Source: a virus. Taken from it: 64,000 nt of DNA. Within the stretch, counting starts at the first letter, position 1. Each line of letters begins with the position of its first letter. The notes beneath the pieces are model-generated. The model was not told the DNA's origin. It was given only the letters and a program-made list of their open reading frames with translations, and did not search any database. Location of the stretch: positions 1-64,000 of IMG/VR virus record IMGVR_UViG_3300029319_000010, one strand, 5' to 3'. The position numbers and the translations under genes are program-made. Below, piece after piece: positions 8,313 through 51,577 of this stretch.

Positions 8313-11300
8313 TTAACGCCTTGTTCTTTTTAAAAAGTCATTAAGTGCCATACCACTTCTAGCAAGTCTTAACTCTCTACCTTTTCTAGATATATTATCA
8401 TAACCACTATTCATTACAGCATCTGAATCAGTGTTTGTACTTTGATTATTAAAGTTCTTATTCCATGTATTAAAATTAGGAATATTATCTTCAGGTATAC
8501 CATCTAAAACCATATTTCTATAAAACTCCACATACTGATCAGTTGCATCTCCTGAACTTCTATAATTTGGATCTTTATTAAACTCCTTTGGATTTACAAT
8601 ATCAATAAACCCTCCTGTGCCAGGCATAACATTAAAGTTAGGATACAAAGTATTCATATTATATGTATTAGCTGCATTAGTATACATATTTTGCATTTGC
8701 TTTGTAATCTCTGCATTAGCTTTTCTTAATGAGTTATCATAGTTTTGTTCTGTTAAGACAGTATTATCATATAGTTTTTTTAATTCATTATTATTTAAAA
8801 GCTGTGTTTTATATTTAATCTCTGCATTCTTTGCTGCTACTGTATTAGCTATAGTAACATTATCATTTTGAACTCTATTCATTGCGTCAGCTATTTGTGC
8901 TGCTGCTTTACCTTGTGCTTTTGCTTGAACAGCTGCAGCTCTTTGTGGTCCTGAGAAAGCAGAAGCTGTATCTGCTGCAATCACAGCTTGTTCACCTATT
9001 GCAGCTATTTCTCTTTCTGGGTCTTTAAATACAGGATCAATCAAGTTTTCATTATACTTAGGTGCCCATGGGTAATACTTTTTAAGACTCATCTTAGCAT
9101 CTAAAGCATTAGCTACACCCATCTTATCTTGTAACCAAAACTGAGGATCTGGAGGTGTAGTTACATCTATATCAGGCACATCCAATTCTTCTAAAGGTGA
9201 TTCACAAGTACATCCCTCACCTGTTGCAGGATCATATGGTATAAATGTACCACCCTTTTGATCACACTCTTCTTTTATTTGTGCAGCATTAGCACAATCT
9301 GTAGTTTCTGTTACAGCACTTTCTACATTAAATAGTGTATCATTACCTATATATGTGCTTAGCTTAGATGCATTAGCATCAGCATCTAATTGATCAGTAT
9401 CAATATTTTGTTTAGTATTTATACTAAAATCTTGATTATCCATTTTAGATAATATAGCACCAGAATTAATTGCTGCTTGCATATGTACACCTTCTTCCTC
9501 AGTAAATGCATTAATAGGATTACCATCTGCATCAACTAAACCAAGTTTATTATATTCTTGATTATAGTACCAGTTTTTACCTACACGCTCTCCTTTTCTC
9601 CAAACATTACCTCTGTAGTTTTTACATCTATTATTTCTAATATCATCTGCTGTACATGTATCATCCTTAGTCCATCTAAATTCACTATCCCAGTTTGGAT
9701 CATCTCTATATAAAGGATCATCTTTTGCTTTTTGATTAAATGCATCAGCAACTCTATTATGATGAGCATACATTCTGTGAAACTCTTCTTCTGATAAAGG
9801 TTGAAAGTTTGGATTCTTTTTCAAAAACTTTGAGTCTCTTGTTTTTTGATCTTCTATATATGTTTTATAAATTTGATATCTTTTATCTCTATAATCTTTT
9901 TGCTCTGGAGCTGTATACCAAGAAGACCAATCATCATAACCAGAATAATTATTTTGTATTGTTTGAATATCTCTTTCTGTAACATTTGTAGATTCTCTTT
10001 CTACTTGTTGATAATTTTGTTTATATGCTCTTAAAATTAACTGATAAGTTTCAGGATCAGTATTTGCTAATCTTGCAAGTTCTATAGAGTTAGCTATAAC
10101 TGTACCATCTTCTAATTCTATAGGAAATGCATTTCTATCCAAGGATTCTTTTAACTCTTCTCCTGTTGCTGCTTTTGGAAGCTCACCTCCTTCACTCATT
10201 GTTTCTAATGTATCTCCTGCAGCAAATGCTGACCCTACATAATAAGGACTTGTTTTATCTGTATAATTTAAGTCATCTTGGTCTCTAAAAGTTAAACCTT
10301 TATCATCATCACTTGAATAAGGATTTTCTTTATCTTTTAATTTATTAAATAATTCTAGTAATGCTTTATCATTATTTTCAACATAGTTCTTCTGAGTATC
10401 TAAAGCATTATCTAATTCATCTTCTTCTTTACCTATAGTAGTTTCTATTTTATTCTGATAAACTTGCTTATATGCTTCTAAATAAGCTGCATTTGGTTCA
10501 GCAGGTGGCGGATTACCATCTTCAATATATTTAACCCAATATTCCACTGTAGCTTCATCCATACTTTGTTGAGATGAAGTAAGATTTTTTTGTAATAATA
10601 AATCTCTTTCTTGATTAGCTAGTTTTGCAAGTTCAGCATTTAATCTTTTTAACTCTTCATTAAAATCTGTTAACTTTGATATTTGCTCTTGATTAGTAAT
10701 AGTTTTCTCATCATTACTAGCTTTCATAAAAGAACTTTCTAAAGGTGTAGTGCTTGTTAAAGGTTGACCATCATAAGTTTGAGTAGGAACATTAAAGTTA
10801 GGTATATTCATTCCTGAAGTACTTGTATTATCTATTGGAAAAAACATATCAGGCATATCATATTCACCTCTAGTTTGATATTTATCTAACTCACCCCCTT
10901 CTTCTAAATTAGCAATAGGCTTTGTATTCATATCAGGATTCTGCATATCAGCACCTAGATCTCTCATTGCTAATGCTTCTGGATCATTAATCACTCTATT
11001 TTCCTCAGTTGTTTCTATTTGTCTTTGAATATCTTGAACTTGAGCTTTTAACTCCATAACTTTTTCTCTAACCTCTATAGGCAGTTGCATCATAGCTTTT
11101 AACTCTGCTTGTTCTCTAGTTATGTTTTCAACTTCTTGACTAAATTCTATTGGATTAACTCCTTGTTTTTGTAAGTAAGGATATGATGCTAATGGTACAC
11201 CATCTTCAAATTCTTTTTTAGCTTCTTGTAAAAAAGCTAATTGTGAAAGAGACTCCTTATTTTTTTGTAACATATACTCTGCAGTATCTTTTGATATTTT

Positions 11301-11795
11301 ATCTGTATGTTCATCATCTAAAACAGCTATATATTTGTTCAGTTCATATTTTTTAGATACATCAGCCGGAGTCATTTTCTTTTTAGATTCTATACCCATT
11401 TCAGCAAGTTCACTAGGGTTTAACTTCATAGACGTTGTATCAGAATAAATAAAAGATTGAGGAGGTAAATTTAAAGGTGTTCCTCCCTCTGAATGTCTTT
11501 TACCAGATATATCATATAATTCAAAATCACCATCATTATTCATATCAGTTAAAGCAGTCTCTCCCCTTTCAGCTTCTAAATTTGCTTCACTTCTATCAAC
11601 AGGCCCTAAAGTAGTATTTACTTTACCAAATGGTGTAGCAGGAATATTAGAAATATCATCATACATCATATTGTCTGTAATCAAACCATAACTAGAATCT
11701 TGTTGTCCTGTTGACCCTCCATGCATAGACTTCTTAACTATTTTTCCATCTACTAGGGCAAAACCTTCTGGTAATTTATTTATTTTTACTTTCAT
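8313..11795 (-). CDS. Virion cargo protein (1160 aa)
   Basis: N-terminal NLEAERGE...GKRHSEGG motif of the GxxHxxGG type seen in crAss-like cargo proteins; coiled-coil and Ala/Gln-rich C-terminus; synteny. Confidence 0.6.
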   Translation of the reverse strand: MKVKINKLPEGFALVDGKIVKKSMHGGSTGQQDSSYGLITDNMMYDDISNIPATPFGKVNTTLGPVDRSEANLEAERGETALTDMNNDGDFELYDISGKRHSEGGTPLNLPPQSFIYSDTTSMKLNPSELAEMGIESKKKMTPADVSKKYELNKYIAVLDDEHTDKISKDTAEYMLQKNKESLSQLAFLQEAKKEFEDGVPLASYPYLQKQGVNPIEFSQEVENITREQAELKAMMQLPIEVREKVMELKAQVQDIQRQIETTEENRVINDPEALAMRDLGADMQNPDMNTKPIANLEEGGELDKYQTRGEYDMPDMFFPIDNTSTSGMNIPNFNVPTQTYDGQPLTSTTPLESSFMKASNDEKTITNQEQISKLTDFNEELKRLNAELAKLANQERDLLLQKNLTSSQQSMDEATVEYWVKYIEDGNPPPAEPNAAYLEAYKQVYQNKIETTIGKEEDELDNALDTQKNYVENNDKALLELFNKLKDKENPYSSDDDKGLTFRDQDDLNYTDKTSPYYVGSAFAAGDTLETMSEGGELPKAATGEELKESLDRNAFPIELEDGTVIANSIELARLANTDPETYQLILRAYKQNYQQVERESTNVTERDIQTIQNNYSGYDDWSSWYTAPEQKDYRDKRYQIYKTYIEDQKTRDSKFLKKNPNFQPLSEEEFHRMYAHHNRVADAFNQKAKDDPLYRDDPNWDSEFRWTKDDTCTADDIRNNRCKNYRGNVWRKGERVGKNWYYNQEYNKLGLVDADGNPINAFTEEEGVHMQAAINSGAILSKMDNQDFSINTKQNIDTDQLDADANASKLSTYIGNDTLFNVESAVTETTDCANAAQIKEECDQKGGTFIPYDPATGEGCTCESPLEELDVPDIDVTTPPDPQFWLQDKMGVANALDAKMSLKKYYPWAPKYNENLIDPVFKDPEREIAAIGEQAVIAADTASAFSGPQRAAAVQAKAQGKAAAQIADAMNRVQNDNVTIANTVAAKNAEIKYKTQLLNNNELKKLYDNTVLTEQNYDNSLRKANAEITKQMQNMYTNAANTYNMNTLYPNFNVMPGTGGFIDIVNPKEFNKDPNYRSSGDATDQYVEFYRNMVLDGIPEDNIPNFNTWNKNFNNQSTNTDSDAVMNSGYDNISRKGRELRLARSGMALNDFLKRTRR

Positions 11796-11797
11796 AA

Positions 11798-14650
11798 TTA
11801 TAATATTTCTATATCTGCTCCTGCAGCAATTAAAGCTTTATATGTATTAATGTCTATCTCTGCTTCTCCCCCTGTTCCAAAAAATGTTCCACCATATAAT
11901 GCTTTACCTTCCTGAGTTTGAGGTGTATATTCTTCATCATCCCTTTGTGATTGTGGGACATATTCTTTTTGCTCTCTTTGTGATTGTGGTATATATTCTG
12001 TAGCATCAGTTTCTACATTACCTTCACTAGTATCTTGATTTGAAATATTAGATAAATTTGCTTGTGTTGTACCACGTTCTATTATAGGTATAGTGTTAGA
12101 TGGCATATTAGGTGTAACTGATGTTACTTTTCTAGGTTGCAAAGTTGTTGAAGGTGGTGCTGCATCAGTTAATACTACCTCATCAAGCATAACACTTTCA
12201 ACTGGAGGTCTTTGACCAGTTAATGTAATCTCATCTAACATAAAAGGAGTAGCTGTTGATCTAGTTGGAGATTGTTCATTAGTAGGTGTAAATATATTTA
12301 TATCTTCTTCCTCTTCTGGTTCTTCTTCTATTTCTTTAAGTCTAAGATTTTTAAAATACTCATCCGCTTCTGCTCTTTCTTCTTTTTTAATATTATAAGC
12401 TTCTCTAGAAACCATTCTATTAAAGTCTCTTTCATTTTCAGCATCTATAGCTTCTTGATCTAAATTAGGATATCTTGATACATTTACTCTATCAGATAAA
12501 GCTAATAAAGATTCTATCATGTCTGCATCATAATTTCCATATACAGTATTCCATGGTCCTCGTCCAGGTAGATCATCTTTATATCCAAATCCTGAACCTA
12601 AAAATTTATATTTTTCTTTCTTCTCATCATCAAAAGATTGGTATCTATTATACTTATCTATATTATAATCAATAGCTGCTGGTCCTCTATAACCTTCTAA
12701 AAATCTATAATACCCTTCAACTACATTAGGATCTAAATTTCCACTGGCTACCTGTCCCTTCATATACCTTGCCATTTCATCATCTACAATAATTCTACCA
12801 AAACCTTCATTAGGTGTTTTTAACCAATCAGGTAATTCAGAAATAGCTGGATTATAACCAACAGTTCTATTCTCATCTTTATAAGCCATAGTATCTAAAT
12901 ACTGATCAGAATAATCATCTCCAAAGGATCTATTATTGCCTACATTGTATTGGTTAAGAACTTGATTTTGTTCATCAGCAGTTAAGTCATCAAAACCAGG
13001 ATATCTATTTGCAACAAACTCTGTCCCTATATCTGCCTGTGGTAATTCTACACCATATCTACCAAGCCTACTAATAACTTTGTCATCAGGTCTAAATATA
13101 CCTGTATTTGGATCATAATCACCTTTAGAGCCTGAAAGATCTGCATCTGTAGGCATAAACACATTATCTGATAAATAACCCAGTCCCATTCGTCTTCTTC
13201 TTTTTCTCTCTTGTCTTTGTCTTAAATATCTAGTTATAGGTTTTGCTATGTTTACTGCAGTTGTACCTATCTTGTCAAGTGTATTAAGAACCTTTTCTCC
13301 AAAGCCGCTTCTATTTGCTCTTCTAATAGCTCTTTTATCTTCTCTAGTCATTCTATCAAAATCCGCATCACCTTCTTCAGTACCTACAGTATATAATGCA
13401 TCACCATCTCTTTCTAATTCTATATCATCTGTTGTTCCATCAAACATATCATCTTCTGGATCTTCTTCTTCTGGCGGTGTATAGTATTCTATTTCTTCTT
13501 CTTCTTCCGGCTCCTCTTCTATTATAAATAACCCCTCATCATCTAAGTCTTCTGGATTAGCATTTTCAAAAGGATCATCATATATATCTTCATCTATTTC
13601 TAAATCTACATCTTCAAAAACATCATCAACTTCATCACCATCTTGATACATAGATAGTCCGCCTCCAAATCTTTCTTCAAGTAGCTCATCATCATCATAG
13701 CTAGAAAAATCTGATTCTATTCCTGCATTTTCAGCTACAATATCAAATCTAGGATTACCATAAAAAGCAGCCATATCATAGGGTGCTGGTGGTTGTAATT
13801 CAAAATCTGTATCTACTGGAAATCTAAAATTAGAATCTAATGGAGCGCTTTCTATTTCTATAGGTTCTGTAATACCTTTAAGGGAGATAGGAAACTCTTG
13901 CATCTCTCCATCAACTTCTTTAAAATAAGAAATAGGTGTTCCGTCTTCATCATAATTTATATATTGAGCATCTGGATATTCAAACATCTCTAATCTATCA
14001 CCCAACTTCATTGTTTGTCTTTTCTTTTTAAAATCACGTTTTCCTGTTTTTCTATATTCTTCTAAATCTACTTTTTCTTTTTGATATAGTTCAGGATACA
14101 TTTCAGCTCTGTAATCTAACTCTCTTTGTATTAGCCACTCATCATACTCATCTGGAGTTTGAAAAAATTTAGTAGGGCTGTTAGGATACTTTTCTTGTAA
14201 TTCTGCGTTTATAATAAACTTACCTGTTGGATCAACTGGATAAGGAGGTCTTTGCTTAGATAAATCTTTTTCTTTCCAATATTGAACAGAGTCATATATA
14301 GCACCAGCAAGATCTAAAAAAGGATTATCACCCATTCCTAAATAATAAGGGTTACCCATTGATTTAATTAAATTAAGATTTTGTTGATTTATTATAGGTC
14401 CTTGATTAAGTAACTCTTCTTCATCTCTTATTGTTTGATTAAAATTAACAGAGTCTATATCTTGATCAGGATTATTTCTATTAAATTGTACACTGCTAAT
14501 ATCAAAGTCATTAGAGTATTGTTCATAAGCCTCTTGTGCTTTTGCAATATCACTTTCACATAGCCCACCTCCTTTTTGTGTGCACCATTGATCAAAAGTT
14601 AATTTAACTTCCCCTTGATCTTGATATGTTTTTAAATAATTTTTATACAT
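11798..14650 (-). CDS. Acidic, partly low-complexity virion-associated protein (950 aa)
   Basis: ORF track; D/E-rich tracts, an Arg-rich patch (RQRQERKRRRR), recurrent YQDxG motifs. Confidence 0.5.
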   Translation of the reverse strand: MYKNYLKTYQDQGEVKLTFDQWCTQKGGGLCESDIAKAQEAYEQYSNDFDISSVQFNRNNPDQDIDSVNFNQTIRDEEELLNQGPIINQQNLNLIKSMGNPYYLGMGDNPFLDLAGAIYDSVQYWKEKDLSKQRPPYPVDPTGKFIINAELQEKYPNSPTKFFQTPDEYDEWLIQRELDYRAEMYPELYQKEKVDLEEYRKTGKRDFKKKRQTMKLGDRLEMFEYPDAQYINYDEDGTPISYFKEVDGEMQEFPISLKGITEPIEIESAPLDSNFRFPVDTDFELQPPAPYDMAAFYGNPRFDIVAENAGIESDFSSYDDDELLEERFGGGLSMYQDGDEVDDVFEDVDLEIDEDIYDDPFENANPEDLDDEGLFIIEEEPEEEEEIEYYTPPEEEDPEDDMFDGTTDDIELERDGDALYTVGTEEGDADFDRMTREDKRAIRRANRSGFGEKVLNTLDKIGTTAVNIAKPITRYLRQRQERKRRRRMGLGYLSDNVFMPTDADLSGSKGDYDPNTGIFRPDDKVISRLGRYGVELPQADIGTEFVANRYPGFDDLTADEQNQVLNQYNVGNNRSFGDDYSDQYLDTMAYKDENRTVGYNPAISELPDWLKTPNEGFGRIIVDDEMARYMKGQVASGNLDPNVVEGYYRFLEGYRGPAAIDYNIDKYNRYQSFDDEKKEKYKFLGSGFGYKDDLPGRGPWNTVYGNYDADMIESLLALSDRVNVSRYPNLDQEAIDAENERDFNRMVSREAYNIKKEERAEADEYFKNLRLKEIEEEPEEEEDINIFTPTNEQSPTRSTATPFMLDEITLTGQRPPVESVMLDEVVLTDAAPPSTTLQPRKVTSVTPNMPSNTIPIIERGTTQANLSNISNQDTSEGNVETDATEYIPQSQREQKEYVPQSQRDDEEYTPQTQEGKALYGGTFFGTGGEAEIDINTYKALIAAGADIEIL
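11911..11999 (-). repeat. Three degenerate 33-nt coding tandem repeats (EYxPQ[ST]Q)
   Basis: Protein reads EYIPQSQREQK-EYVPQSQRDDE-EYTPQTQE. Confidence 0.8.
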
Positions 14651-14706
14651 GTTGAAATACGCAGTTTACTATAATAATATACTAAATAATATTGACAATC
14701 ACTAAA

Positions 14707-17700
14707 TTATATTCTTGCTAATGATTGTAAGTAGCTTAACACATTACCACCTGTTTTTTTTGTTTGCAGATGATACATCTTATTTAGCTTTTTAAAAATT
14801 TGATTTGCCCTGTTTTGTTTTGGTCCATTATCAAAAGAACCTTTTATATAATCTTCATAAAATTTTATTTGTTGATTTAAATTTAAATTTAACTGTCCTC
14901 CCTTTTTATAGTTAACATCATCTAAATTATATTCAAAATTAAATCTAATACCTTTTAAATTTAATTTTTTATTAGGTTTATTAGCTAATCCTAATTTATA
15001 TAATTCTTTTAAAACTGTAGGTGATATTTTTTCACCTTCTAAATTTTTCTTATAGTCTTTAAATAATCTACTATACTTTCTTACTGAACCACCTTTTCTT
15101 CTATAAGCATTTATATATTTTTGAACACTTTTTTTACCCTCTAATGTTTTTACTTTATCTTCAAATTTATCATCATTACGTAAAACTAACATGTTTACAT
15201 AATCCCTAGTTTCTTTAGGTAAATCATTAACCCAAGACATATCATCACTATAGATATCTACACCCGCATTTTTCTTTTCATTTAAAAAGTTGTTAAGTTT
15301 AGTAGAACCCCAATTATATGCTGCTAATGTTTTAGCTAGTCTTACATTTTGATCTTGATTACCTTTATTAATCCATGGTCTATTATATAAATCATTCATA
15401 TACCACTTTTGAACAGCCATAGCATCTCTATAATCTGTTAAATCTACATCTTTGTCTCCTGTAGCATTTATATAATCTGTTAAAGTATCTGGCATTATTT
15501 GTGTTAAACCTTTAGCTCCTGCAGGAGAAATAGCATTAGGATCTAATGCAGACTCTGCCATAGCTTGTAATAATAATATATCTTTTCCAACTTCTGTTGA
15601 GTCATCTCTATCTATACCAACTGGTAAACCATCATCATCTCCATCTTTAAATGTATCTTGTAATGTTATTGGTCCGTATGATTCACCTCCATCATCATAT
15701 CTTGGACCACCAGATTGCTGATCTAAAATAAAAGGACTGGCTATAGCAGGAGGTATAATTGCAGGTAACCTATTTAATTGTTGAGATAAAAAATTTATAT
15801 TGCTTGGATCCTTTGACATAAACTGTGGTATCCTAGGCATATAAGGAGGATTTCCTGTAACACTTGTTATATTAGGAGCTCCAGGGGTAGGAACATCAAT
15901 TGCATTTAAATACTTGGTAAGAATACTGGGTGTTATCTCATCATAAGTATTTTTAATAAATCCTCTTTGTAACATATCCCCTCTTAATTCAGCTAAGTAT
16001 GGCATGCCTTCTCCACTTGTTCCTATAGGGTTAGTTGAACTTATTCTTGTTGATGATAAATTTTTAGGATTAGGTTCTAACATCCTTGCAAAATAATTAT
16101 ATTGTTTTTCATTTCCACCAACTTTACCTAAGTTTCTTAACACATAATCTATTTGACGAGAACTCAAGTCATTTATATCCGTGTTATATAACGTCCTATC
16201 CATATTACTTGCTGGACCTGCTTTATAATTATAATTAGTTTTTAAACCTTTTTGTATAGCTCTATCTATATCTGTATTGTATACGGAAAATTTACCGGTA
16301 TATTCTGGATATATATCACTTAAATCTTTTTTAAGTTTTGTAGTAAGTGACTGTCTAATACTAGGATTATCAAAGTGTTTAGGATGTATTTTTCCTATAT
16401 TATATGGTAAATATTTAGTAATTCCTGCTCCAATAAAATGACCTATTTCATGGTCTGTAACAGGTATATTAGCTGTACTATGATAAGGTAAATTTTTATG
16501 TAAATATACTCTTGGTAAACCTGCTTGTATTGCACCAGGATTATTGCTTCTAAAAGGAGCATTAAAACCAAATGATCCATAGTCATCAGTCATATTTACT
16601 ACTCTCATTTGTGATGCATCAACTATCATGTCATCTATTACACCATTTACCAAACGTTCATATTGATTTACTTTACCCGCCTCAGTAACAGGTCTTTTAG
16701 TAAATAATTTACCAGGCCCTATAATTTCTTCATCAATTAAACCCCTCATTCTTAATCTAAATTCAGGTGTTAACATTCTTTGTTGTAAGTCAGTAACTCT
16801 TGAATTTGCTAGTTGTGAATAGTTATAACCCTGTTCCATATTTTCTCGCATCAACATCACTTCTTCTGCAGTAAATTCTTTACCAGATGGCCCTCCTTTA
16901 AGAACGCCTGGAGAGGTTGATGGTGTTGGATTTGTATTTTTTAATAAAGGAGAATACTTAAATTTATTAGCCATGTGTGCTACTTCAAGACCACCAAAAG
17001 TAATACCAAGTAAATCTAAACCTACATTAACTCCTGTACGTAATGAAGGATCTTCAACAAAATCTTTAACATCTCCAGGTAAACTATATCCACCGTATAA
17101 ACCACCTGCTATATTTATTCCACCTCCTACTGTTGTACCTGTATAAGGTATTGGTGTATTTAATAATGCACCAGTAGCTTGAATAATTGATGGTCCTGCT
17201 ACACCCGCTGTTGTTAAAACAGGTATAGCTTGAATACCATAATCTATTGCTTTAGTTGTTGCTTGTAATCCTTCAATACTACCATACAATGGATCTACTA
17301 CTGCATTAAAAACAGGATTTGTTAATTCTTGTCTTCTAAGATATGGTGTATTATAATTAGAACGTTCCCATTCAATACCCATAAAGTCTGTATCTTTACC
17401 AGTTTTATCTCTTAAATAGTCAGCATACTCAAGAACTGGATCCTTATCTATAAGCTCAACTGGATCTAATTCATAAAGTTGGTTATATAAATATCTATGA
17501 TCTCTTGATCCATAATCTGTGCTAATCATAGGAACTCCCTCTTCATTATAATAAGTTATAGGAAATTCTTTTTTACCTACTTTTACTACACCATCATCTT
17601 CAATAAATTGTCCTTGTGAATTAAACTGTCCTTTATCTTGATATGATGGTAGTTCTGCACCATATTTAGCATAAGTAACATTACCATCACCTTCATCCAT

Positions 17701-20700
17701 TGCAATCTCATTTAGATACTTAAATACATTTTCTTTAGTGTCATTTAATTTATTTTCATAATGATCATATAAATCATTTACTACCTTATCTTTTAAATCA
17801 ATATAATTTTGCTCAAAGTTTTTTAAATATTGTAATTCTTCTTCTGTAAGTTCTTGTCTATTAAATTGCCAATCATCTGGTTTATCTCCATAGTACTCAC
17901 TATTCTCTTTATGAAATCTAGAGTTCTTTTTAAGTATATCATTTATTTTTTTATGAGTTTCTTCTGTAAAAAAATTATTAAACTGTTTATTTATTTTTTC
18001 TTGTTGTTCTCTACTTGCATCTTTATATCCAGGTATATCCATTTCAAATGTCTCACGGAGTTTGTAGTTATCTGGATCATATTTACTTGAAAAATATCTA
18101 TGATTTTTACTAGCAAATAAACCCTCAAAACGGTCATCTCCAATCAAATCTATAGGTTTTTTATCTCTTACACTTCCATAATACTCTACATCTCTTGGAA
18201 ATAAAGGTTTACCTCCTATATTTTGTAATATACGTTTGCTTCTACCTGTAAAAGGAACTGTTATCCCTGAGATCTGGTCAAAATTACCTTCTTCATTATA
18301 GTAGCCATCTTCCCCATACCATGTTGCACCTGTTTCTAAATCATCTAAGGTAAACTTATCACTCAAAAAATCTTTTACATTTTTATTTTCAAATCTTTCC
18401 CTTCTTTTATATGTTCTTCTTTTATCCCCCTCTCTATCTAAATGTTCAGGTACTTGATATTTACTATCTATTTGTTTTAATATATTTTGACTTTCTAATA
18501 ATTGATTTCTAGGAGATATCTCATCACCAGAAAAGAAATCACTTTTATCAAAATCAGTGCCTTCTCCTTGAGGAAATTCTAAATTTACATAACCTTGATT
18601 TGCCCAAGGAGTATAATCTTCTAAAATTCCTGTTGGATTTAATATACCTAAATCATCTAAATATGTAGCTCCTTCATTTTGTACTCCTACTAAACGTAGT
18701 GGATCTTTTTCATAACTTATAAACCCTCCTGCACCTGTACCTGGATGAGCTAAAAAGTCTGGGTTATCTAAATTCTTTATAAGTTTTTTATAATTTTTTT
18801 CTGTAAAAGGTCCTTCATTAGGATCCCATATATTAAAATCTTTTAATGCTTTTTCAAACATAACTTTACCAGCTCCTATTTCTCCTATGTCTGATATATG
18901 AGGTAATTGTTCTTCAATAAAATTTTGATCATATTTACCTTGTTGATCAAATATATTTTTATAAAAATCTATTTCATTAGTTGGTGTTGTATATCCTTCT
19001 ACACCTCTCCATAATGGAGAGTGTGGACTATTATATAAATGACTTACCTCATGCTCTTTTATTATATCTGCATATGGATGTATTCCATCTTCACCATAGA
19101 GATATGAAAAAGATTCTGGCCCACCAGGAGCATAAAATCTTGCTAAAGCTTCAAACTCTCTTGGCCCTAATAAAGCTAAATCCTTAAAATCATATTCTCC
19201 AGTATCCTCATTTAATTCATATTCTACATGACCGCGGCTTTGATTTATTATATTTTTTAATAAATCAGGGTTCATCCTTGACAGATTATTTATACCTTCT
19301 TCTGTATAAAAATCATATGCATTTTCATCATTTACTGGTAAGTCATAATTAATAGGAGTTGCTATATCTGGAACTTGGCTTGTATATTCAATTTGTTCTG
19401 CAATTCTTCTATTCCATTCGTCTTCAGTCATATCATTCCCAGTAACATTTTTATATTGTTTAAAATATCTATCTTTAAATGCAGGAGAATTATATTTTTC
19501 AATTAAATTTTCTTTTTGTTTTGATATATCATAAAAATCATAATCAGGATAATATGTTTGTGTACGTTTAGGTTCAATTAATTCAACTTCCTCTAAATCT
19601 GTTACTTCACCTTGATCTTGATATGTTGGTAGTTCTTGAATAGAACCTCCATCTACCTTTTTCAAATATTTACTTAACCCTTTACTACCATAGTAAGCAC
19701 CTTTTAAAAGTTTAGGGATACCACCCATAAAACCTAAAGGAGCAGTTCCTCCCATAGGTGTAATATCACCATAATCTACACCTAGCATTAAATCACCATC
19801 TTCATTTCTTACATAACCTGCAATTCTTTCTGATTCAGATTTTTGTTCATCAGTAAGTTCCATGTTTGCACTAAATGCAGAAAAGTCTTCTTCATCTATC
19901 TCACCATCTGAATCTAATTCTTCACCAGTTTCAGCTATTGGTAATAGTTTTATTTTATGGGGATCATCAGGAACATTAGCTGGAGCTTTATACTTTTTAA
20001 GTTGTTCCATTTCCTCATCAACCTTTTTATTTGATCTACTGCCTATTTCACTTATAGGTGCACCTAAAATATTTGTTTCTATTATAGGTCTAATGTCTGG
20101 ACCAGCATGTGCACCTTCTTCCATTGTACCATGTGTATGATATAAAGCATCTTGATCACCTCCTGCTTCTATATAGTCCTTAGCATAATCTTTTAAATAG
20201 GCAGCTCTACCTCTTTCATTATGTTGAAATGTATGAGTGGCTTCATTTATAAAATCTAATAATAATTGATAATCACTACGCACTAAAGGTTCACCAGTTT
20301 CAGGATGTGTATTTTTAAGCATTATTGTAGGACGCTGTCCTAATGACCAATTATCAAAATAGTCTCTAGTACCCTCATATATATGTACTGCAGGACTATT
20401 TAATCTTGTATATTCATTTATAAAATTTTGTTTTATTTCATCAGTGAGTCTTCTATCATCTGAATTCATAATTCTATCTATAAATTGTTGTGTTTGCTCA
20501 TCATGTTTAGCTTCTCCTTTCTTTTCATTAAGATATCTTTCTCCCCGCCATATAAACATTTCTGAATCAGCATGATTTTTTTGAGCATTAGAAAATGCCT
20601 CATTTAAATTACCTCCCTCTACAGTTGGATACATTTTAGGAATTCCAAATTTATTAAAGTCACCTGAATAATTATAAGGATTTGTCCAAGCTGGCATAGC

Positions 20701-21282
20701 TGTATCCCAACTAGAATATACAGCATCAGCCGTGCCCTTTAAAAAATCTATAATACTAGTTTCGGTTCCATCCTGTGCTTCTTCTAATTCTTGTTGATCC
20801 TTTGTGCTATAAAATTTTTCATCTTGTTTATCATTAACCGGGTTAGTTCTTTTTCTTTCTAGTTGATAATCTCTAGCTGCTTGTACAATTTCTATTGGGT
20901 ATGCTTGAGGACTTGATAGTACTATCTGTAAAGCTTCTTGTACATCCATACCTTGTGATTCTGCAAACTTTTCAAATGGATGATTATCATATGCAGTATC
21001 CATAGTACCTCCTACTTGTGCTAATGGTATTTCTATAACTATATCTCCAGGAAATTGATAATTAAGATCAGGCATCATAATCTCACTATTACCAAAATTA
21101 TCTGTGCCCATAACAGGAAATGGAACGCCCTCCATAGTAATATTACTTGACTCAATAATATTAAAGTCATTATTAAAATCAGGACTACCTTCTTTATATC
21201 CTTCTACAGATATAGAGCCTTTTGAAGTTACCTCATTAGGTCCTCCTGGTAAACCACGTCTGTTATTAAATTTTATATTCAT
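14707..21282 (-). CDS. Multidomain cargo protein (2191 aa) with zincin-like HExxH motifs and a C-terminal SLT-type lytic transglycosylase
   Basis: SLT motifs AESALDPNAISPAGAKGLTQIMP and LAAYNWG (~15190-15580); HEIGH (16438-16452); HEVSH (19039-19053); degenerate NEATHTFQH (20233-20247). Confidence 0.8.
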   Translation of the reverse strand: MNIKFNNRRGLPGGPNEVTSKGSISVEGYKEGSPDFNNDFNIIESSNITMEGVPFPVMGTDNFGNSEIMMPDLNYQFPGDIVIEIPLAQVGGTMDTAYDNHPFEKFAESQGMDVQEALQIVLSSPQAYPIEIVQAARDYQLERKRTNPVNDKQDEKFYSTKDQQELEEAQDGTETSIIDFLKGTADAVYSSWDTAMPAWTNPYNYSGDFNKFGIPKMYPTVEGGNLNEAFSNAQKNHADSEMFIWRGERYLNEKKGEAKHDEQTQQFIDRIMNSDDRRLTDEIKQNFINEYTRLNSPAVHIYEGTRDYFDNWSLGQRPTIMLKNTHPETGEPLVRSDYQLLLDFINEATHTFQHNERGRAAYLKDYAKDYIEAGGDQDALYHTHGTMEEGAHAGPDIRPIIETNILGAPISEIGSRSNKKVDEEMEQLKKYKAPANVPDDPHKIKLLPIAETGEELDSDGEIDEEDFSAFSANMELTDEQKSESERIAGYVRNEDGDLMLGVDYGDITPMGGTAPLGFMGGIPKLLKGAYYGSKGLSKYLKKVDGGSIQELPTYQDQGEVTDLEEVELIEPKRTQTYYPDYDFYDISKQKENLIEKYNSPAFKDRYFKQYKNVTGNDMTEDEWNRRIAEQIEYTSQVPDIATPINYDLPVNDENAYDFYTEEGINNLSRMNPDLLKNIINQSRGHVEYELNEDTGEYDFKDLALLGPREFEALARFYAPGGPESFSYLYGEDGIHPYADIIKEHEVSHLYNSPHSPLWRGVEGYTTPTNEIDFYKNIFDQQGKYDQNFIEEQLPHISDIGEIGAGKVMFEKALKDFNIWDPNEGPFTEKNYKKLIKNLDNPDFLAHPGTGAGGFISYEKDPLRLVGVQNEGATYLDDLGILNPTGILEDYTPWANQGYVNLEFPQGEGTDFDKSDFFSGDEISPRNQLLESQNILKQIDSKYQVPEHLDREGDKRRTYKRRERFENKNVKDFLSDKFTLDDLETGATWYGEDGYYNEEGNFDQISGITVPFTGRSKRILQNIGGKPLFPRDVEYYGSVRDKKPIDLIGDDRFEGLFASKNHRYFSSKYDPDNYKLRETFEMDIPGYKDASREQQEKINKQFNNFFTEETHKKINDILKKNSRFHKENSEYYGDKPDDWQFNRQELTEEELQYLKNFEQNYIDLKDKVVNDLYDHYENKLNDTKENVFKYLNEIAMDEGDGNVTYAKYGAELPSYQDKGQFNSQGQFIEDDGVVKVGKKEFPITYYNEEGVPMISTDYGSRDHRYLYNQLYELDPVELIDKDPVLEYADYLRDKTGKDTDFMGIEWERSNYNTPYLRRQELTNPVFNAVVDPLYGSIEGLQATTKAIDYGIQAIPVLTTAGVAGPSIIQATGALLNTPIPYTGTTVGGGINIAGGLYGGYSLPGDVKDFVEDPSLRTGVNVGLDLLGITFGGLEVAHMANKFKYSPLLKNTNPTPSTSPGVLKGGPSGKEFTAEEVMLMRENMEQGYNYSQLANSRVTDLQQRMLTPEFRLRMRGLIDEEIIGPGKLFTKRPVTEAGKVNQYERLVNGVIDDMIVDASQMRVVNMTDDYGSFGFNAPFRSNNPGAIQAGLPRVYLHKNLPYHSTANIPVTDHEIGHFIGAGITKYLPYNIGKIHPKHFDNPSIRQSLTTKLKKDLSDIYPEYTGKFSVYNTDIDRAIQKGLKTNYNYKAGPASNMDRTLYNTDINDLSSRQIDYVLRNLGKVGGNEKQYNYFARMLEPNPKNLSSTRISSTNPIGTSGEGMPYLAELRGDMLQRGFIKNTYDEITPSILTKYLNAIDVPTPGAPNITSVTGNPPYMPRIPQFMSKDPSNINFLSQQLNRLPAIIPPAIASPFILDQQSGGPRYDDGGESYGPITLQDTFKDGDDDGLPVGIDRDDSTEVGKDILLLQAMAESALDPNAISPAGAKGLTQIMPDTLTDYINATGDKDVDLTDYRDAMAVQKWYMNDLYNRPWINKGNQDQNVRLAKTLAAYNWGSTKLNNFLNEKKNAGVDIYSDDMSWVNDLPKETRDYVNMLVLRNDDKFEDKVKTLEGKKSVQKYINAYRRKGGSVRKYSRLFKDYKKNLEGEKISPTVLKELYKLGLANKPNKKLNLKGIRFNFEYNLDDVNYKKGGQLNLNLNQQIKFYEDYIKGSFDNGPKQNRANQIFKKLNKMYHLQTKKTGGNVLSYLQSLARI

Positions 21283-24200
21283 TATCTAAAACTATAATTT
21301 ACTTTTGTATTTGCTAATTTTAACACCATCTTTCTATTTTTTGAAACTGTTCTTCTTAATAGTATTTTATTATAATAATGTCTAAACTTCTTTCTTTGCA
21401 ATTGATTTTTATTATAATTTAAGTTTGCTTCATTTAAGTCTCTTATATACCCATTTAGCTGTGTAATAAATATTGACTCTGTAGCATCACTAAATTCACC
21501 TCTATCATAAGTAATATCCCAGAACTGATTAAATCTAAATTTCTGCTCCTCTTTACTATATAATATTCTTATATCATTTGCTGTTACTATTGGATAATCT
21601 GTAATTAAAGGTACATCATTTTTAGGATTAAGATCTAATGTTAATAATCCAGATACTTGTTCTGAGTTATGAATAATTGCCTCATCAAAGTTAAAATCAA
21701 GATCATGAAATCTATCTCCACAGTTATTATCTAAATTACCTTTATATATCCAACTCTCTAACTGATACTCTATACTCTTAACCGTATTAACTTGTTGACC
21801 AATTGCTTCAACCCATTCTATTTCCCAAGGATAGTCTTCATCATAATAATTTGTATATAAATCACAACGTACATTATGCTTCCAGGTACCTCCCCTTAAA
21901 TAACTTGGAGGAACTTGACAGACACCATCAAACAAACATGTTTTAGGAAATGGTTCCATATCCCCATTAAGGTAATCTTGATAATATCCTGGATCTCCTA
22001 AAAGATAAAAATCAGGACAATCTCCTTGTTCAGTTATAACAGTTTCTGGTGAAACATTAGAATCATCACAAAAACAATCTACTCTTCTACATATAAAACT
22101 ACCTGGGTTACATTGTCCAACAGGTGATGCAAAGTATCCTGATTCATCTTGAAATACAATTTCAAAACCTGGTTCATTATCACAATCACATATATTATCA
22201 CCATCAACTCTATATGTACAATCTAAACTAGCTACAACATCAATTGCAGGTTGAGCAAAAGTACCAGGATAAACTTGATAAGCACTTCTTGGATTAGCAG
22301 CAACTGCTCCTTGATAATCATCCATTATCCAAGCTTCATCCCACCACCACTGATCTACATCATAATAAATTTGTTGAAACTTATAAATAGACCAAACATA
22401 TTCGTCTGTTGCTTCTTGTCCTGCCTTAACAGCAATAACACCAATATTCATATGAGTTTGACCTAAAGCTGCAAAACAATCCGCAAGAGGATCTTCACCT
22501 GGTAAAAGACCTTGTGTAACTCCTACATGATTAGCAAATTCTATATTAGGATAGGTTGGAGTAACACAACCAGCAGGTGCAAAACTACTTGCCGCTTCAT
22601 GTAAGCCCAGCTCTCCAGTTCTCCATAACATAGCATTTAATGTAGGACCTGTACCAACACCATCATCAGCTAAACAGTTCTGTTCAAATTCACTATTATC
22701 ATCAACATCAGCACCAGCACCAGCATCTGTAATTATTACAGCTATTCTTTTTAAATTTGGATTATCAAATCTACTACCTGAGTGTGATAAACCCTGTGCA
22801 TTTACAACTGAAGCATCAGGATATTCAAATGGATCATCTGCATATACTCTTGCAGAATTTACAGCACCAGCATATGTTGTTGAACTATTACCAAGATCTG
22901 CTTGATCTAACTCTCCCAAGCCAGTATAGCCAGGAGCAATACCTATAAAATTTCTTATAGAAGAATAACTATTTGTAAAACGTAAATTTTTTCTATTAGA
23001 ACTTGTAATATCTAAATCACGGTTCACTGATGCAAGACCAGCCCATTGTACAATTGCTATTTGAACAGCACCACTAGTTATTTCAGCTTCTAGCTCTTCT
23101 ACAAATCTATCCATAAATAGCAACTCAGCTTTCCATGCAGCATCACCACTATATCCTGTACTACCTGATGCATCTACAGCAAGCACAATATCATAAGGAC
23201 ATGCTGCTGTTTCAGAAGATACATTGTCATCAAAGTTACCTTGTCTTTCTTCTACTTGTATTGTTGCTGGAAATTCTCCTGCAAGAAATTGTTCACATTG
23301 ACCTGTTGTAGGATTAAAATTAAAACCTGGAGGACATAATGGATCTTCTGTTATTTTAGATTTTGTAGTTAAGAAATGATTTAAACTTGGTAAAACTAAT
23401 TCTGGATGCCAATCATGGAATGATATCCAAGCCTTAGCTTTTGGGTCATAACTGACTGTCCATGATACATCTTCAAAATATTTTGTGTCATCTAAAGCAA
23501 CTGGTGTTGTTTGATCTATCAATCCAAGTGGCGCAGCCATTTCAAGACATTCACATGTCCAATTATTATTTGCATCTTGTATAGGTTCACATTCAGGTGG
23601 GCACTCAATTATCTCTGTAGTAGTTGTAACACCTTCAAATAATTGTATTGCCATATTATTAGCAACTTCCATATTATATCCTCCAATACCCCACTGATTT
23701 GGACCAGGACCAGATCTTGCTGCTGTATAATCTATATTTCCTTGAGTAGGTTCTACAACTGCAGGATAATCTGAAAGTAGTTCTGGAAATGTTCCATCAG
23801 GGTTTAACATGCTAGGATGAAGAATTTTTGGTTCAAAGTGAAAAGCCCACACTTGTAGTTGACCATTAAAAGCAAGTGCATCTTCATTTTGATAATTTGA
23901 TGTAGGATCAAATATATTATTATTCAACCAAGTTATAAAACTATCATTTTGTTCTAAATCATTATAAGAAGATGTTATTTGAGCTACCTCTGCATATGGC
24001 AAATAACCTATTAAAGGACCATCTGGAATATTATCAATATTAATACCCCATTCATTTTCTTGATAGAAAGATAAATCTCCTGGTTGTCCAGGATTTATTG
24101 ATAATGTATTTACCATTGGTGTAGTAGTAGGTGTTGCTGTACTTGTACCACTATCATATCCGTATCCATCCCCCAAGTGACTTGGTAGTGCAGTTGTATC

Positions 24201-27200
24201 ATACCTATCATCAATTTGTACATGAACTTTATTTACATCTGTTCTACCATTGGTATATAAATAATCTAAAGCTTCCCAAAATGCTCTAGTATTATTAGCA
24301 CCACCTGATATACCTACATCATATTCTTGATAAGCAATTTCATCCTCTTCACTCATAGGTATTTGATATTCCTCTAATCCTGTTTGATTACCTGGGAAAA
24401 GTACATTATTTGCCCACCATATTAATTGTCCAAAATCATCTGTAAAAGGTTGTATGTATCTACCTGCAGTATCCCAAGTTCTAATAGCTATTTGAACATC
24501 TCCATCAGCTAATTGTTCTCCAAAAGAATTTATAATATTTAATAAAAGAGCTTGAAGTATCTCTATATTGTCTTCTATATCTGCTCCACGTGTTACTTGA
24601 ACACTAAGTATTATATCAAACTTTGGTTTTGCAATAGTTGTTGATTCTGTTATATCAGGATCAACATAATAAACTCTTTCACATTTACCATTTCCTACAT
24701 ATGTAAATCCTTCTGGACAACATTCAATTTGAGGTAGTCCATCACATTTTGTTTGGTTATAAACAAAACCATCACAAGCATTAAACTCAATACAATCAGA
24801 AGTACAAGAAAAATCTTTTTTCATAAAATATACTAGATCATAATTAGGATCATATACTGATTGACAGCCTACACCTGCAACTGGATTATCAGACCATTTA
24901 GGACAAGTTTCTAATTCTGGAAATTGTTTAATTAACTGTGATGGTAAGTATTGATTAAACCATTGTTTCATACCTAGATTAGATATGTTATTTAATCCTT
25001 TACCTGCCATATGAAATATCTTACCCTGTGCTTGTGATATATAAAACATACCAGCTGGTGTATTAATAACACTTCTAGCACTTTCACAAGATCCATATTC
25101 ATGCGGTAAGTCTGCATTTACAAGATTTTGCATAGGTTGACTAAATAGTCCTCCATCACCAATAGTAAGCTTAGTACCAAGATCTGTTCTTAATGTATCT
25201 ACACCTTGAAATAAAGCTGGTGCTAAATGTGGGAATAAAATTACTGCACCGCTTTTAGATATAGGTTTAATGACATTTACTTGATTTTTAAAATCTTTAT
25301 AATTGTTTGGCAGGAATACTCTCCAAAAATCTTTTTTGGCTTCATTCTGAGCTTGTAATGAATATGCTAACCTTTTAGGGTAGTGTGTATTACATGTTTC
25401 TGCAACAAATGGATCATAGTCTCTTGGTTGTAATCTGCCTGAATTAATTCTAGTAGTTGGAAAGTTAGCATATGTAAGAGAATTGTCATACTTATAGAAA
25501 TTTCCTATTGAAAGAATTTCTGCATGAAATAAATCATTTATATCAGCATACTCTAACCAATCATAATGTCTTTTACCTTTTTGATCTTCATAATCTCTTT
25601 GAGCCACATTAATTTCTGACTCAACCCAAAAATCTTGAATTCCATTTACATGTGTATAAAAATATCTATCCTTTATATGGAAAAAACTTTTACCTCTTTT
25701 ATCATGTGTCTCATCTACAGTATCTGGACCAGAATTTATAGGTTGAACTGAACCATATGGATTAGTTGCTTGTAATGGTTCAAGTGAAATAGAACCCCCG
25801 TCAGCACCATCTCCACCTCCTTCATATCCTATTACATTACCGTCATCATCAAGTATTTCTTCCATATCTCCTCCGCTAGCATCGCTTCCATCAAAACTCC
25901 AATTCATAGTAACTAAACCAGGATCACCGTCTGGATATTGAATTCCTGTCATACCTTCACTTTTATCTACACCACCAATAGTAAAAGCTTCACACTGTAC
26001 ACTACCATCATCTAAATGAAAAAAACCATTAGGCATAGCACCATATAGAGAAGCTGGAGTATCTAACCATGCAAAGTTAGTTATATATCTAGCAAGGTTA
26101 GAAAGATCATATCTAATGAAATTTGCCCAATACATAGGAAACATTACATTTGCTCTAAGCCTGTAATCATAAGGAAAGCCATCAGGTTGACCTAATAAGA
26201 AGTCCCAGTAAAAAGGCATTATATTTTTTTCTGTATATCTATTTATATAACAATCACCTCCATATAGAGTGTCAGATTTTAATCTTGTATCAATATTAGC
26301 TATTAAAGTAATATCATCACCAGAATAACCTCCTTCAATTGATGGTAACTGATTCTTAACATATTGTATACCACTTCCAAACTCTCCATTAGTTATAGGC
26401 ACTTGTTTAACTTGATCAAGTTGACCATATTGATTTTCAAATTGTACTTTTAAACCAACATATTGTGCAGCAATATTTCTTGTAAAAGGTCTAGTAGGAT
26501 AAGTTGTATTACCTTCTTGACCTATAGTCCTTCTTGAATTGTCAGCACCATCAGCTCCTGGAGCTATATAACCTAACATCTTTGCCTGATCTCCTTCTAT
26601 TGGAAGGCTGCCATCAAGAAGCCCTTCATATCCTTCTCCTACTAATGCTACTGTATTTGGTCTAAACAAATTATTCATTTTAATAGTAGACGTCAAGTTT
26701 TGCATTGTATTTTTTACATATCTTGCTTTTCTACATCTTGTCCTCATAGGGGTATTTACACCTCCCTTATCTCCATCACCATCTAAATATTGCAACTCAG
26801 TTCTCCAATAAAGACCATGGCCATTATATTTCATAGCATAGTCTTGAAAACTACATAACTCATATATTAAGTTAATAATATGATTACCACCCTCTGCAGT
26901 CATATTTATAAACGCAAACACACCATACAAAGGTTGTAGTACAGCAGGAAGATCACCAAACCATGCTTCACCTCTATCATAATTAACTTGAACACCTCCA
27001 TCTTGATAACCACCTACCATACCTTGAGTAGTTAATGCAAAACCAGCAGTATTACCAGCCTGTGCTAGTTGTTGACCTATACCAGGAGCACCAAAAACAG
27101 TGGATGCAGTTGAAACAGTTTCTGTTCCAGCTGCTACACCTTGCTGTCCATATAAAGCTAATAAGTTACCACCAGAAATACCTGCACCAAGAAGTGGTGG

Positions 27201-29490: not shown

Positions 29491-30375
29491 TTAATAACTT
29501 TTAAACATGTCATAATAGTTACAATACTGAGCCTTTCTATTAACTTCCCATATTTTTCTCATCTCTTCAAATCCTGGTGTATTAATAAAGCCTAAAGCAT
29601 TATTTCTAGCAGCTCTTAATCTTTGTTCTACAAACTTAACTTGGTTACCAACATTCTCACCGTCAAATAACATATTTTCTAATATCCTTTGTTTTAATGC
29701 ATATTCATAGTATTCATTACAATAAGGATGATCTAACACTAAAAGATTACCTTCATCATCTTCCATATCTGCTTGATAATTTAAATAAACTTTACCCGTC
29801 TTAAAATTAGTCATTAAAAAGTTATCTCTTATTTCTGCTATATTAACTGCTTGAACATTTATATTTGGACAATCATCATCACAGAATACAGTATTTACAT
29901 CTCTAAATCTTAGTTGAAAAAAATCAGAGTATACTCTATACTGACTAGCTCCAATATATTGAATAACCATATATTGACTTTCTTGACTTGTATCATTGCA
30001 AGTTTTAACAACACATACATCATTACACTCAGGGTCATCACAAGGTCCTGTATCATCAGGAGATGGTACATATTTAGTTTGTGTAGTATCTACAACTGTA
30101 CCAGCTGGCATTGTATTATGTATTTTAAAACTATTGCACACAAATGCATAATTTAAATATTTAAAGTCTGTGGGTAACTTTGCTTTAGAGTGTTCTACAT
30201 CTAAAACTTTTTCTCTTGTTCTATGTATTCTTAATCCAAGATCATAATTTACTCTTTGAGCAACTTTAATTAATTGCTGAGGTTCAACATGACCTGCAAG
30301 ACTATATGCAGCAAAATCTATTGTTACATCTTCTAGCAATTGGTTAAAAGTTCTATATTTATTTGATACTGCCAT
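29491..30375 (-). CDS. Tail tubular/ring protein (294 aa)
   Basis: Directly upstream of the muzzle; TNFKTGKVYLNYQA..DDEGNLLV motif resembles crAss tail tubular proteins. Confidence 0.6.
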   Translation of the reverse strand: MAVSNKYRTFNQLLEDVTIDFAAYSLAGHVEPQQLIKVAQRVNYDLGLRIHRTREKVLDVEHSKAKLPTDFKYLNYAFVCNSFKIHNTMPAGTVVDTTQTKYVPSPDDTGPCDDPECNDVCVVKTCNDTSQESQYMVIQYIGASQYRVYSDFFQLRFRDVNTVFCDDDCPNINVQAVNIAEIRDNFLMTNFKTGKVYLNYQADMEDDEGNLLVLDHPYCNEYYEYALKQRILENMLFDGENVGNQVKFVEQRLRAARNNALGFINTPGFEEMRKIWEVNRKAQYCNYYDMFKSY

Positions 30376-31046
30376 TATCTAAGAATATTTAATTTATTAT
30401 CTGCATCTTCTGCAGGAATTTTCATAGTATTCATTAGTTGGTTTACAACTTGTTGTTCTATTTCTGCAAACAAAAATTCAGGAACATATAAGTTTTGTAA
30501 ATATCTTGGTGTGCAATTATATTGTGTTTCACATTTATAATTCTCAATATCTCCTTCAAACACACCTTCTAATTTTATAGCATGCCAATCTATATTAGGA
30601 AAATACATATAATTATTTAACCACCAAAAGTATCTAGTTTTGTTATATTTAAATGATGTTGACTTTGTCATAGAAGTATATGTACCAGGATGTGTAGCTT
30701 GCAGCTCAGTTGATCCATCTATGCTAGTTACACTTCTAATTAATGGGCCCCAGTAACCTTCCATAAATATAGGAAGTTTATCTTTTGTTCTCATAATAGT
30801 ACAACCACTCTGTATTCCACTACATTTTGCTTCTACTTTATCTACTTCAATCAGTTCAACAAAAGGTAAGCTTTGCCATACACTATTGAATTTTTTAAGT
30901 TTATTAGTGCTATCTTGCCTTCTCATTAATAATTGAGCAAACTTAAGAACTAAGCTATAAATCATTCTATCAGTGACAAAAGCATCTTGAACTTCAGCTT
31001 TAGTTATTTGTCTAATCCTTGAGATTACATCTCCTATTTTTGTCAT
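30375..31046 (-). CDS. Tail ring protein (223 aa; likely start MTKIGDV at 31046)
   Basis: Synteny between IHF-like and tail tubular genes; start at 31046 avoids overlap with the upstream gene. Confidence 0.55.
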   Translation of the reverse strand: MTKIGDVISRIRQITKAEVQDAFVTDRMIYSLVLKFAQLLMRRQDSTNKLKKFNSVWQSLPFVELIEVDKVEAKCSGIQSGCTIMRTKDKLPIFMEGYWGPLIRSVTSIDGSTELQATHPGTYTSMTKSTSFKYNKTRYFWWLNNYMYFPNIDWHAIKLEGVFEGDIENYKCETQYNCTPRYLQNLYVPEFLFAEIEQQVVNQLMNTMKIPAEDADNKLNILR

Positions 31047-31050
31047 AGTA

Positions 31051-32840: not shown

Positions 32841-32887
32841 TTAATTTATGTATTGGTTATAACGTTGGCAATATACAAAATAATTAT

Positions 32888-51567: not shown

Positions 51568-51577
51568 AGTTTTAAAT

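Follow-up and report, generated by a model that had tools for sequence, protein, structure and literature searches.

A recurrent junction peptide heading the modules of probable ejection proteins in a marine crAss-like phage

The stretch of DNA analysed here, referred to as the window, comprises the first 64 kb (64,000 nucleotides) of a single 114,213-bp contig of about 30% G+C (IMG/VR record IMGVR_UViG_3300029319_000010), which belongs to a marine crAss-like phage. Crassvirales are among the most abundant gut phages and are also common in the sea. Our study identified a short recurrent peptide in three large proteins (P0001, P0002 and P0003) and one small basic protein (P0004), which are probably packed and injected by the phage. 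By sequence comparison, this peptide is the lineage form of a junction, or "header", peptide that is common to marine crAss-like phages and apparently undescribed. The lineage form reads L-P-x-Y-Q-D-x-G-E, often after [KR]-[YF]-G-G, and the wider consensus reads [KR]-Y-G-G-x-L-P-K-A-Q-x-G-G-E; the Y at +3, the D at +5, the E at +8 and the often weakened GG are specific to the lineage. The peptide, a short linear motif in disordered sequence on which selection acts at the protein level, follows a Pro-rich linker and directly precedes a module. Its carriers are the cargo (ejection) proteins that are not polymerases, together with a small, polycationic protein of the late operon, and in evolution it remains attached to the module that comes after it. 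As judged from homologous sequences, it is a shared seam that in most cases is passed on together with the downstream module, as its header.

Results

Recurrence of the motif and its restriction to four proteins

The initial annotation had proposed a recurrent motif in three otherwise dissimilar cargo proteins, and all the peptides it quoted are found in the three corresponding open reading frames (ORFs) on the minus strand. As a regular expression, the motif takes the form L-x-x-[YA]-[QAED]-x-(xG/Gx)-[EQ]. In the proteome of the whole genome (98 ORFs, 36,481 aa), the expression L[PSDTKE].[YA][QAED][DTIV](.G|G.)[EQ] matched ten times, whereas 300 shuffles gave 0.10 matches on average and never more than one, and the core YQ[DT].G[EQ] matched five times, compared with 0.07 expected. 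The ten sites, named by protein and residue, are P0001:303 and 539; P0002:6, 332 and 536; P0003:166, 447, 551 and 1211; and P0004:49. All matches are confined to these four proteins and none occurs in the remaining 94 ORFs, so that the proposed restriction to probable virion-internal proteins holds (three genes behind the muzzle gene and one basic late protein), with a fourth carrier, P0004, that had been missed. Because both expressions were composed after the sites had been seen, we built an independent weight matrix, trained on 204 sites solely from other phage contigs. Five window sites score 17.0-26.5 bits with this matrix, whereas shuffled proteomes gave 0.54 matches of at least 10 bits each and a maximum of 17.8 bits (200 shuffles). 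These results provide evidence that the recurrence is real and non-random.

It is important to note that no single pair of 11-mers stands above chance and that the significance consequently rests on the family of sites: in a pairwise 11-mer scan the top motif pair scored 45, which is not above the best pairs of shuffled proteomes (40-45). BLASTP between the cargo proteins gave no high-scoring segment pair (HSP) with E<0.1, which bears out their dissimilarity, and the best cross-matches were the motif stretches themselves. The strings RYDDGGE, RRKGG, YKKGG and ALYGG, which had also been counted as copies of the motif, are indeed present, but none is individually above chance. Synonymous differences in codon use are seen among the ten sites (Leu and Gly, for example, are each encoded by four different codons), indicating that the peptide, and not the DNA, is under selection; a DNA-level recombination signal was ruled out on the same grounds. 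Genome-specific co-variation of the motif residues was not detected over all free positions (0.122 vs 0.119, p 0.29), and the higher value at +5, +7, +8 and +9 (0.120 vs 0.079, 0 of 500 shuffles) is exploratory only, because these positions were chosen after the per-position table had been seen.

Conservation in related phages

In a close relative (L001, 45-84% identity), P0003:447 and P0003:551 take the canonical form (FGGALPKAQNG and DGGSLPKAQDG, respectively), P0003:166 keeps the AQDGTE core, P0002:6 keeps YQD-x-GEV, and the P0003:1211 site is kept as well. P0004:49 is supported by its YQD-x-GE core alone. A DNA pattern for GG-x-LPKAQ-x-G was found in at least 120 IMG/VR stretches, many of them with two or three copies, all of the matches following the reading frame of long ORFs (median 984 aa; 199 sites in 131 ORFs); 90 of 120 loci are homologous to the source phage, and the commonest neighbour is the muzzle gene. 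The logo from the motif instances of the 139 homologues of P0001 reads (M)(A)[KR]-Y-G-G-[EGS]-L-P-K-[AYF]-Q-x-G-G-E, and the information content of the motif is about 25 bits. Among 134 sites, a few are near N-termini and none is within 40 aa of a C-terminus. For 75 of the 130 ORFs that carry the motif elsewhere, BLAST gave no match to proteins of the source phage, indicating that the peptide sits on many unrelated modules. The window sites share with the clade-wide peptide its matrix match, its location (behind the muzzle gene or in a small basic late protein) and its disordered linkers at boundaries.

Disordered linkers and module boundaries

The initial annotation had placed the motif of P0003 between modules, and the predicted disorder around the modelled sites agrees with a position at module boundaries rather than inside folds. 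In the AlphaFold model of P0001, based on an alignment of 61 sequences, site 303 lies within a stretch (261-370) whose predicted local distance difference test score (pLDDT) is below 50, and site 539 lies at the end of another such stretch (516-545), with a confident module starting at about residue 545. In the model of P0003 residues 520-870 (mean pLDDT 61), site 551 also has a pLDDT below 50, and the fold starts about 20 residues later. In a set of 194 non-redundant sites, the upstream stretch of 30 residues is rich in Pro (0.10-0.15 vs 0.06) and poor in basic residues, while the downstream composition equals the background.

Among 1.8 billion representatives, only 12 are related to the HEVSH module that follows P0003:551, and in all ten of the homologues examined (28-46% identity) a variant of the motif is present at the matching upstream place. 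Members of the P0001 family share the position of the first motif, behind a conserved N-terminal domain, and differ in the region that follows. Homology breakpoints in this family fall within 15 aa of the motif in 13.1% of cases, compared with 4.9% in the null (null maximum 7.2%), a 2.7-fold excess; HSP ends accumulate at its downstream edge and HSP starts at its upstream edge. These breakpoint statistics, together with the header that travels with its module, support the earlier proposal of interchangeable modules.

The four proteins and their sites

All genes and sites in this section are on the minus strand. P0003 (2191 aa, 14707-21282) is a modular cargo protein with four full motif sites, composed of an N-terminal beta domain, zincin-like modules, a Gly-rich stretch and an SLT domain. 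Its conserved N-terminal domain is closed by a half motif, I-P-L-A-Q-V-G-G (residues 85-92, 21007-21030), which distant homologues (P0145, P0149 and P0150) keep as F-P-G-D-x-V-x-E-[IL]-P-x-A-Q-x-G. The full sites are P0003:166 (L-E-E-A-Q-D-G-T-E, 20761-20787), which matches the regular expression and scores 9.8 bits with the independent matrix; P0003:447 (L-P-I-A-E-T-G-E-E, 19918-19944), a regular-expression match; P0003:551 (L-P-T-Y-Q-D-Q-G-E after V-D-G-G, 19606-19632), the header of the HEVSH module; and P0003:1211 (K-Y-G-A-E-L-P-S-Y-Q-D-K-G-Q, 17626-17652), with 21.0 bits. HExxH motifs are found at residues 744 and 1611, the former being the HEVSH of a zincin-like module that, in the AlphaFold2 (AF2) model, spans approximately residues 581-845 (18748-19542). 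Structural matches of this module are mostly to M13, M1 and other zincins but are weak (best Z 5.1), and it also weakly matches the second HExxH module of g070 of phage phi14:2. The SLT lytic transglycosylase domain (residues 1897-2006, 15265-15594; PF01464, E 5.6e-13) is directly preceded by the GG-only joint R-Y-D-D-G-G-E (15679-15699), which is not significant alone. The motif had been said to surround both the HExxH regions and the SLT domain; it does flank the HEVSH module, but the joints flanking the SLT domain are GG-only. A degenerate C-terminal joint, K-K-T-G-G-N-V-L-S-Y-L-Q (14725-14760), faces the N-terminal motif of P0002. When stand-alone versions of the middle module of P0003 were sought, the shorter proteins were mostly contig-end fragments.

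P0002 (950 aa, 11798-14650) has ten homologues and no Pfam or PHROG match. Its first site lies at the extreme N-terminus (P0002:6, M-Y-K-N-Y-L-K-T-Y-Q-D-Q-G-E-V, 14609-14635), where the second half of the motif is present in eight of nine homologues, down to 39% identity; the exception, P0006, aligns over only 90% of the query. The other two sites are P0002:332 (R-F-G-G-G-L-S-M-Y-Q-D-G-D-E, 13631-13657; 18.3 bits with the independent matrix) and P0002:536 (R-Y-G-V-E-L-P-Q-A-D-I-G-T-E, 13019-13045; 17.0 bits). Residues 881-909 of the same protein (11925-12010) form three tandem 11-residue repeats of the type E-Y-[IVT]-P-Q-[ST]-Q-R/E..., before a C-terminal Y-G-G...G-G-E tail. The best 11-mer match of the whole proteome also involves P0002, pairing E-E-Y-R-K-T-G-K-R-D-F at its residue 197 with E-N-Y-K-K-T-G-A-R-D-F at residue 1234 of ORF 2-4660; its score of 46 is borderline, given up to 45 in shuffled proteomes.

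P0001 (1160 aa, 8313-11795) has 139 homologues and an AF2 model; its N- and C-terminal domains are conserved and its middle is variable. It carries P0001:303 (E-E-G-G-E-L-D-K-Y-Q-T-R-G-E, 10863-10889; 21.1 bits with the independent matrix), whose G300 is conserved in at least 90% of the family, and P0001:539 (S-E-G-G-E-L-P-K-A-A-T-G-E-E, 10155-10181; 26.5 bits). A tblastn search with P0001, P0002 and P0003 against 50,697 GenBank phage records returned only a generic SLT match.

P0004 (235 aa, 57514-58221) is an Arg-rich late protein with its motif site at residue 49 (58051-58077), behind a basic leader. A similarity of 44 aa around the motif links it to P0003 residues 527-570 (E 0.10), and its C-terminal 90 residues or so are Arg-rich near-repeats of the type R-Q-A-R-R-A-D-R-R-E; from this composition, P0004 looks like a DNA-coating polycation. 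Small, very basic ORFs with the junction motif near the N-terminus also occur at four IMG/VR loci (L105, L080, L113 and L121), and two of these ORFs also terminate in G-S-N-G-V-L, both signals thus being on the same proteins.

Late gene order and neighbouring genes

Pfam and PHROG matches identify the source phage as crAss-like. A long late operon runs on the minus strand from about 58.2 kb down to the start of the window and includes the genes for terminase (49113-51305), portal (46250-49009) and the crAss major capsid protein (42749-44383), all assigned with these two databases. The genes for tail ring proteins R1 and R2 (29491-31076) are directly upstream of the gene for the muzzle protein (2732 aa, 21282-29480 on the minus strand; PF25731 crAss_MUZ, E 2.3e-22), which marks the start of the cargo block. 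The muzzle gene is followed by P0003, P0002 and P0001 and then by four genes for giant proteins (1195, 1555, 3663 and 1918 aa), which occupy the position of the RNA-polymerase block of phages crAss001 and phi14:2; the latter assignment is by gene position only.

Several neighbouring features were also observed. The muzzle protein contains at residue 825 the sequence G-G-Y-Q-D-G-G-V, which resembles a shortened motif lacking L-P-x and is possibly due to chance. The late operon also includes a Cpn10 (GroES) gene next to that for terminase (51298-51591, minus strand; PF00166, E 2.6e-18). Between the tail genes there are two late ORFs (31632-33536, minus strand) with weak matches, below the Pfam cut-offs, to a calcineurin-like phosphoesterase (E 0.009) and to an fn3 / purple-acid-phosphatase N-terminal domain (E 1.6e-4); g075 of phi14:2, a metallophosphatase, has the corresponding position. 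The genome contains only two peptidase-like elements, the HExxH modules of P0003 and an early DUF2201-type gene. The latter belongs to an early gene pair outside the window (genome positions 72667-75097, plus strand) and encodes a DUF2201_N putative metallopeptidase with a VWA-like domain and a HELLH motif; the gene that follows is a putative AAA ATPase by sequence, to which an AAA_24 match may belong.

Discussion

A docking or loading handle as the favoured reading

Our study favours the reading, to which we give a probability of roughly 40%, that the motif is a docking or loading handle read in trans. Sequence-specific conservation on unrelated proteins points to a reader in trans, and it is the orientation of the motif as a header, its N-terminal copies and the crAss001 structures that favour docking. 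Each module would be fastened by its handle to a repeated internal site (the portal wing, the tail-barrel rings or the capsid lining), so that the modules could be loaded and afterwards released in sequence. The glycines on either side would allow insertion of the five-residue core irrespective of the fold next to it, and cutting at the handle, as in the T4 capsid-targeting sequence, may follow. The N-terminal motif of P0002, where there is nothing to link, is in line with this reading.

The cargo proteins C1 (gp45) and C2 (gp46) of crAss001 are encoded at the equivalent place, immediately behind the muzzle gene and ahead of the RNA-polymerase block, and both have been detected in virions (Bayfield et al. 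2023, PMC10172136). In gp45, aromatic-GG joints are found at residues 208-210, 426-428 and 561-563. Two segments of this protein have been resolved, residues 214-245 on rings R1 and R2 and residues 425-552 on the portal wing (PMC10172136). The portal-bound piece begins A-F-G-G-W-L-N-T-Q-G-G, and the barrel-bound piece begins four residues after Y-G-G; both resolved segments thus begin at joints, which indicates that the ordered, partner-bound density starts there. A recurrent motif is not described for the crAss001 cargo in that paper. Sequence and profile comparisons gave no significant match between these cargo proteins and P0001 or P0002 (BLASTP returned nothing), and a candidate homology of P0001 or P0002 to gp45 was set aside; Foldseek and VIA searches with the 1160-aa P0001 model were uninformative, giving only long-helix noise.

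Several observations weigh against a docking handle. The joints of crAss001 lack the L-P-K-A-Q core and resemble the marine motif only loosely, and the profile comparison of the P0001 family with gp45 (hhalign) was not significant (probability 0.3%). The four giants of the RNA-polymerase block carry no copy of the motif by regular expression. The handle has only candidate partners; the copies per particle probably exceed the 12 portal or ring sites; and GG or Q has been lost at several sites in the lineage, which a strict binding site might not tolerate. The counterparts of the giants are packaged in crAss001 and phi14:2, and therefore the motif cannot be a general packaging signal, loading being in general possible without it; by the same observation, it lacks the T4-type property of being present on all packaged non-structural proteins.

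Cleavage, hinge and host-factor readings

In the main rival reading, which we consider possible although somewhat unlikely, the motif is instead a cleavage site for a phage protease, most likely one of the zincin-like modules of the cargo itself. The protease would cut within the motif or directly behind it, either inside the head or once the proteins had been injected, freeing separate enzymes and removing leaders in the manner of T4 gp21 or of the S/A/G-x-E sites of phiKZ-type phages. This reading agrees with the terminal Glu followed by a hydrophobic residue at nine of the ten window sites (five of which read G-x-E), with the exposed inter-module linkers in which the sites lie, and with the leader of 20-55 aa that precedes the motif in the small basic proteins (P0004 and the ORFs of L105, L113 and L121). 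The N-terminus of P0002 resembles the T4 sequence MKTYQEFIAE, a resemblance only, and the phi14:2 paper (bioRxiv 10.1101/2020.03.07.982082) has proposed that crAss cargo includes zincin-like protease domains and that fused polyproteins are likely cleaved. However, the zincin assignment is weak (see above), and the N-terminal motif of P0002 has only five residues ahead of it. Prohead proteases of the S77/U9, S78, U35 and ClpP types were not found in Pfam and PHROG scans of the late genes, nor among the 25/33 families listed for 60 further ORFs, where divergent proteases could be missed. In addition, the counterpart joint A425-F-G-G-W of gp45, treated as homologous, is continuous in the cryo-EM model, and its authors took gp45 as one chain spanning the portal (PMC10172136). 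We also re-matched the crAss001 gel spectra (PMC6235969, supplement 14) to theoretical tryptic masses, with shuffled controls, for bands 1-9. The bands were assigned to gp44 (1-2), gp50 and gp47 (3), gp49 (4), gp20 (5), gp26 and gp22 (6), gp22 and gp25 (7), gp25 (8) and gp23 (9); gp47, gp49 and gp50 are of full size, with peptides from both ends, whereas gp45 and gp46 were not above shuffled controls in these bands (from the largest down to gp23, 77 kDa). The portal, which has as many copies as gp45 (12 per virion each), was found in the gel. The absence of gp45 would fit its cleavage but may reflect only its few theoretical tryptic peptides (25 vs 36 for the portal), and the spectra are compatible both with fragments of gp45 and with an intact chain.

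A passive hinge and recombination joint, that is, a Gly-rich seam kept through microhomology for module exchange without any reader in trans, appears improbable to us. The clustering of breakpoints and HSP limits at the motif in the P0001 family is what such a joint would leave, and the many motif-bearing ORFs without a match to the source phage imply a high module turnover; nevertheless, the synonymous codon variation shows that protein rather than DNA is conserved, a hinge does not need about 25 bits of sequence information, and conservation also extends to an N-terminal copy of the motif, which has nothing to hinge. Equally doubtful is the combined proposal that one portable peptide loads both the ejection modules and the DNA-coating polycations of crassviruses onto a repeated site in the particle interior and is then cut by cargo-borne zincins, which would be a self-contained load-and-release system unrelated to the T4 and phiKZ head proteases. 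Least probable, and by a wide measure unlikely, is a handle that a host factor would recognise once the cargo had been injected, with a chaperonin or periplasmic factor refolding each module ejected in unfolded form. The Cpn10 gene of the phage and the GroEL gene of phi14:2 (g105) would fit such a factor, as would the report that crAss001 cargo must cross the tail partly unfolded (PMC10172136), and the mobile-loop region of Cpn10, S-G-I-Y-I-P-E-T-A-Q, is loosely like G-G-x-L-P-K-A-Q. This likeness is by eye only, and the score of the phage Cpn10 with the motif matrix does not exceed background; on these two grounds, mimicry of the GroES mobile loop was rejected. Moreover, the hydrophobic triplet by which loops bind to chaperonins is absent from the motif.

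Significance and comparison with known systems

The loading and ejection of several megadaltons of protein is a question left by the crAss001 structure, and a portable peptide that marks each module of the ejection proteins offers a way into it, since such a peptide can be mutated, fused to reporters, co-folded with the portal, ring and capsid proteins and searched for in virion mass spectra. If it were sufficient for loading, it would be a tool to pack foreign proteins into crAss-like phages.

The cargo proteins described here recall the polyvalent proteins of Iyer, Burroughs, Anand, de Souza and Aravind (2017), which are reportedly long injected proteins made of unrelated enzymatic modules, including zincin-like peptidases and lytic transglycosylases, and for which self-processing is said to have been proposed; to our knowledge, a conserved junction peptide has not been described for them. 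In phi14:2, the first protein behind the muzzle (g070), detected in virions by tandem mass spectrometry (MS/MS), has two HExxH modules, each behind a GG joint of the form GG-x-V-D-P-P-[TS]-K; it differs in that the core of this joint is VDPP rather than LPKAQ or LPxYQ and in that the protein is much shorter (593 aa). The capsid-targeting sequence of T4 is MKTYQEFIAE (PMC8442874), and the N-terminus of P0002, ...L-K-T-Y-Q-D-Q-G-E, shares with it the order K-T-Y-Q-acid, an analogy and not a homology. In T4 the signal occurs once, at the N-terminus, and its cutting by a dedicated protease has been demonstrated, whereas the source phage has up to four internal copies per protein and no such protease was found in the Pfam and PHROG scans. 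What the junction peptide has in common with the motifs of T4, phiKZ and SPN3US (PMC9026906, PMC8442874, PMC5694885) is that it is a short peptide with a terminal acidic residue, carried by unrelated, often very basic, proteins that are packaged and injected.

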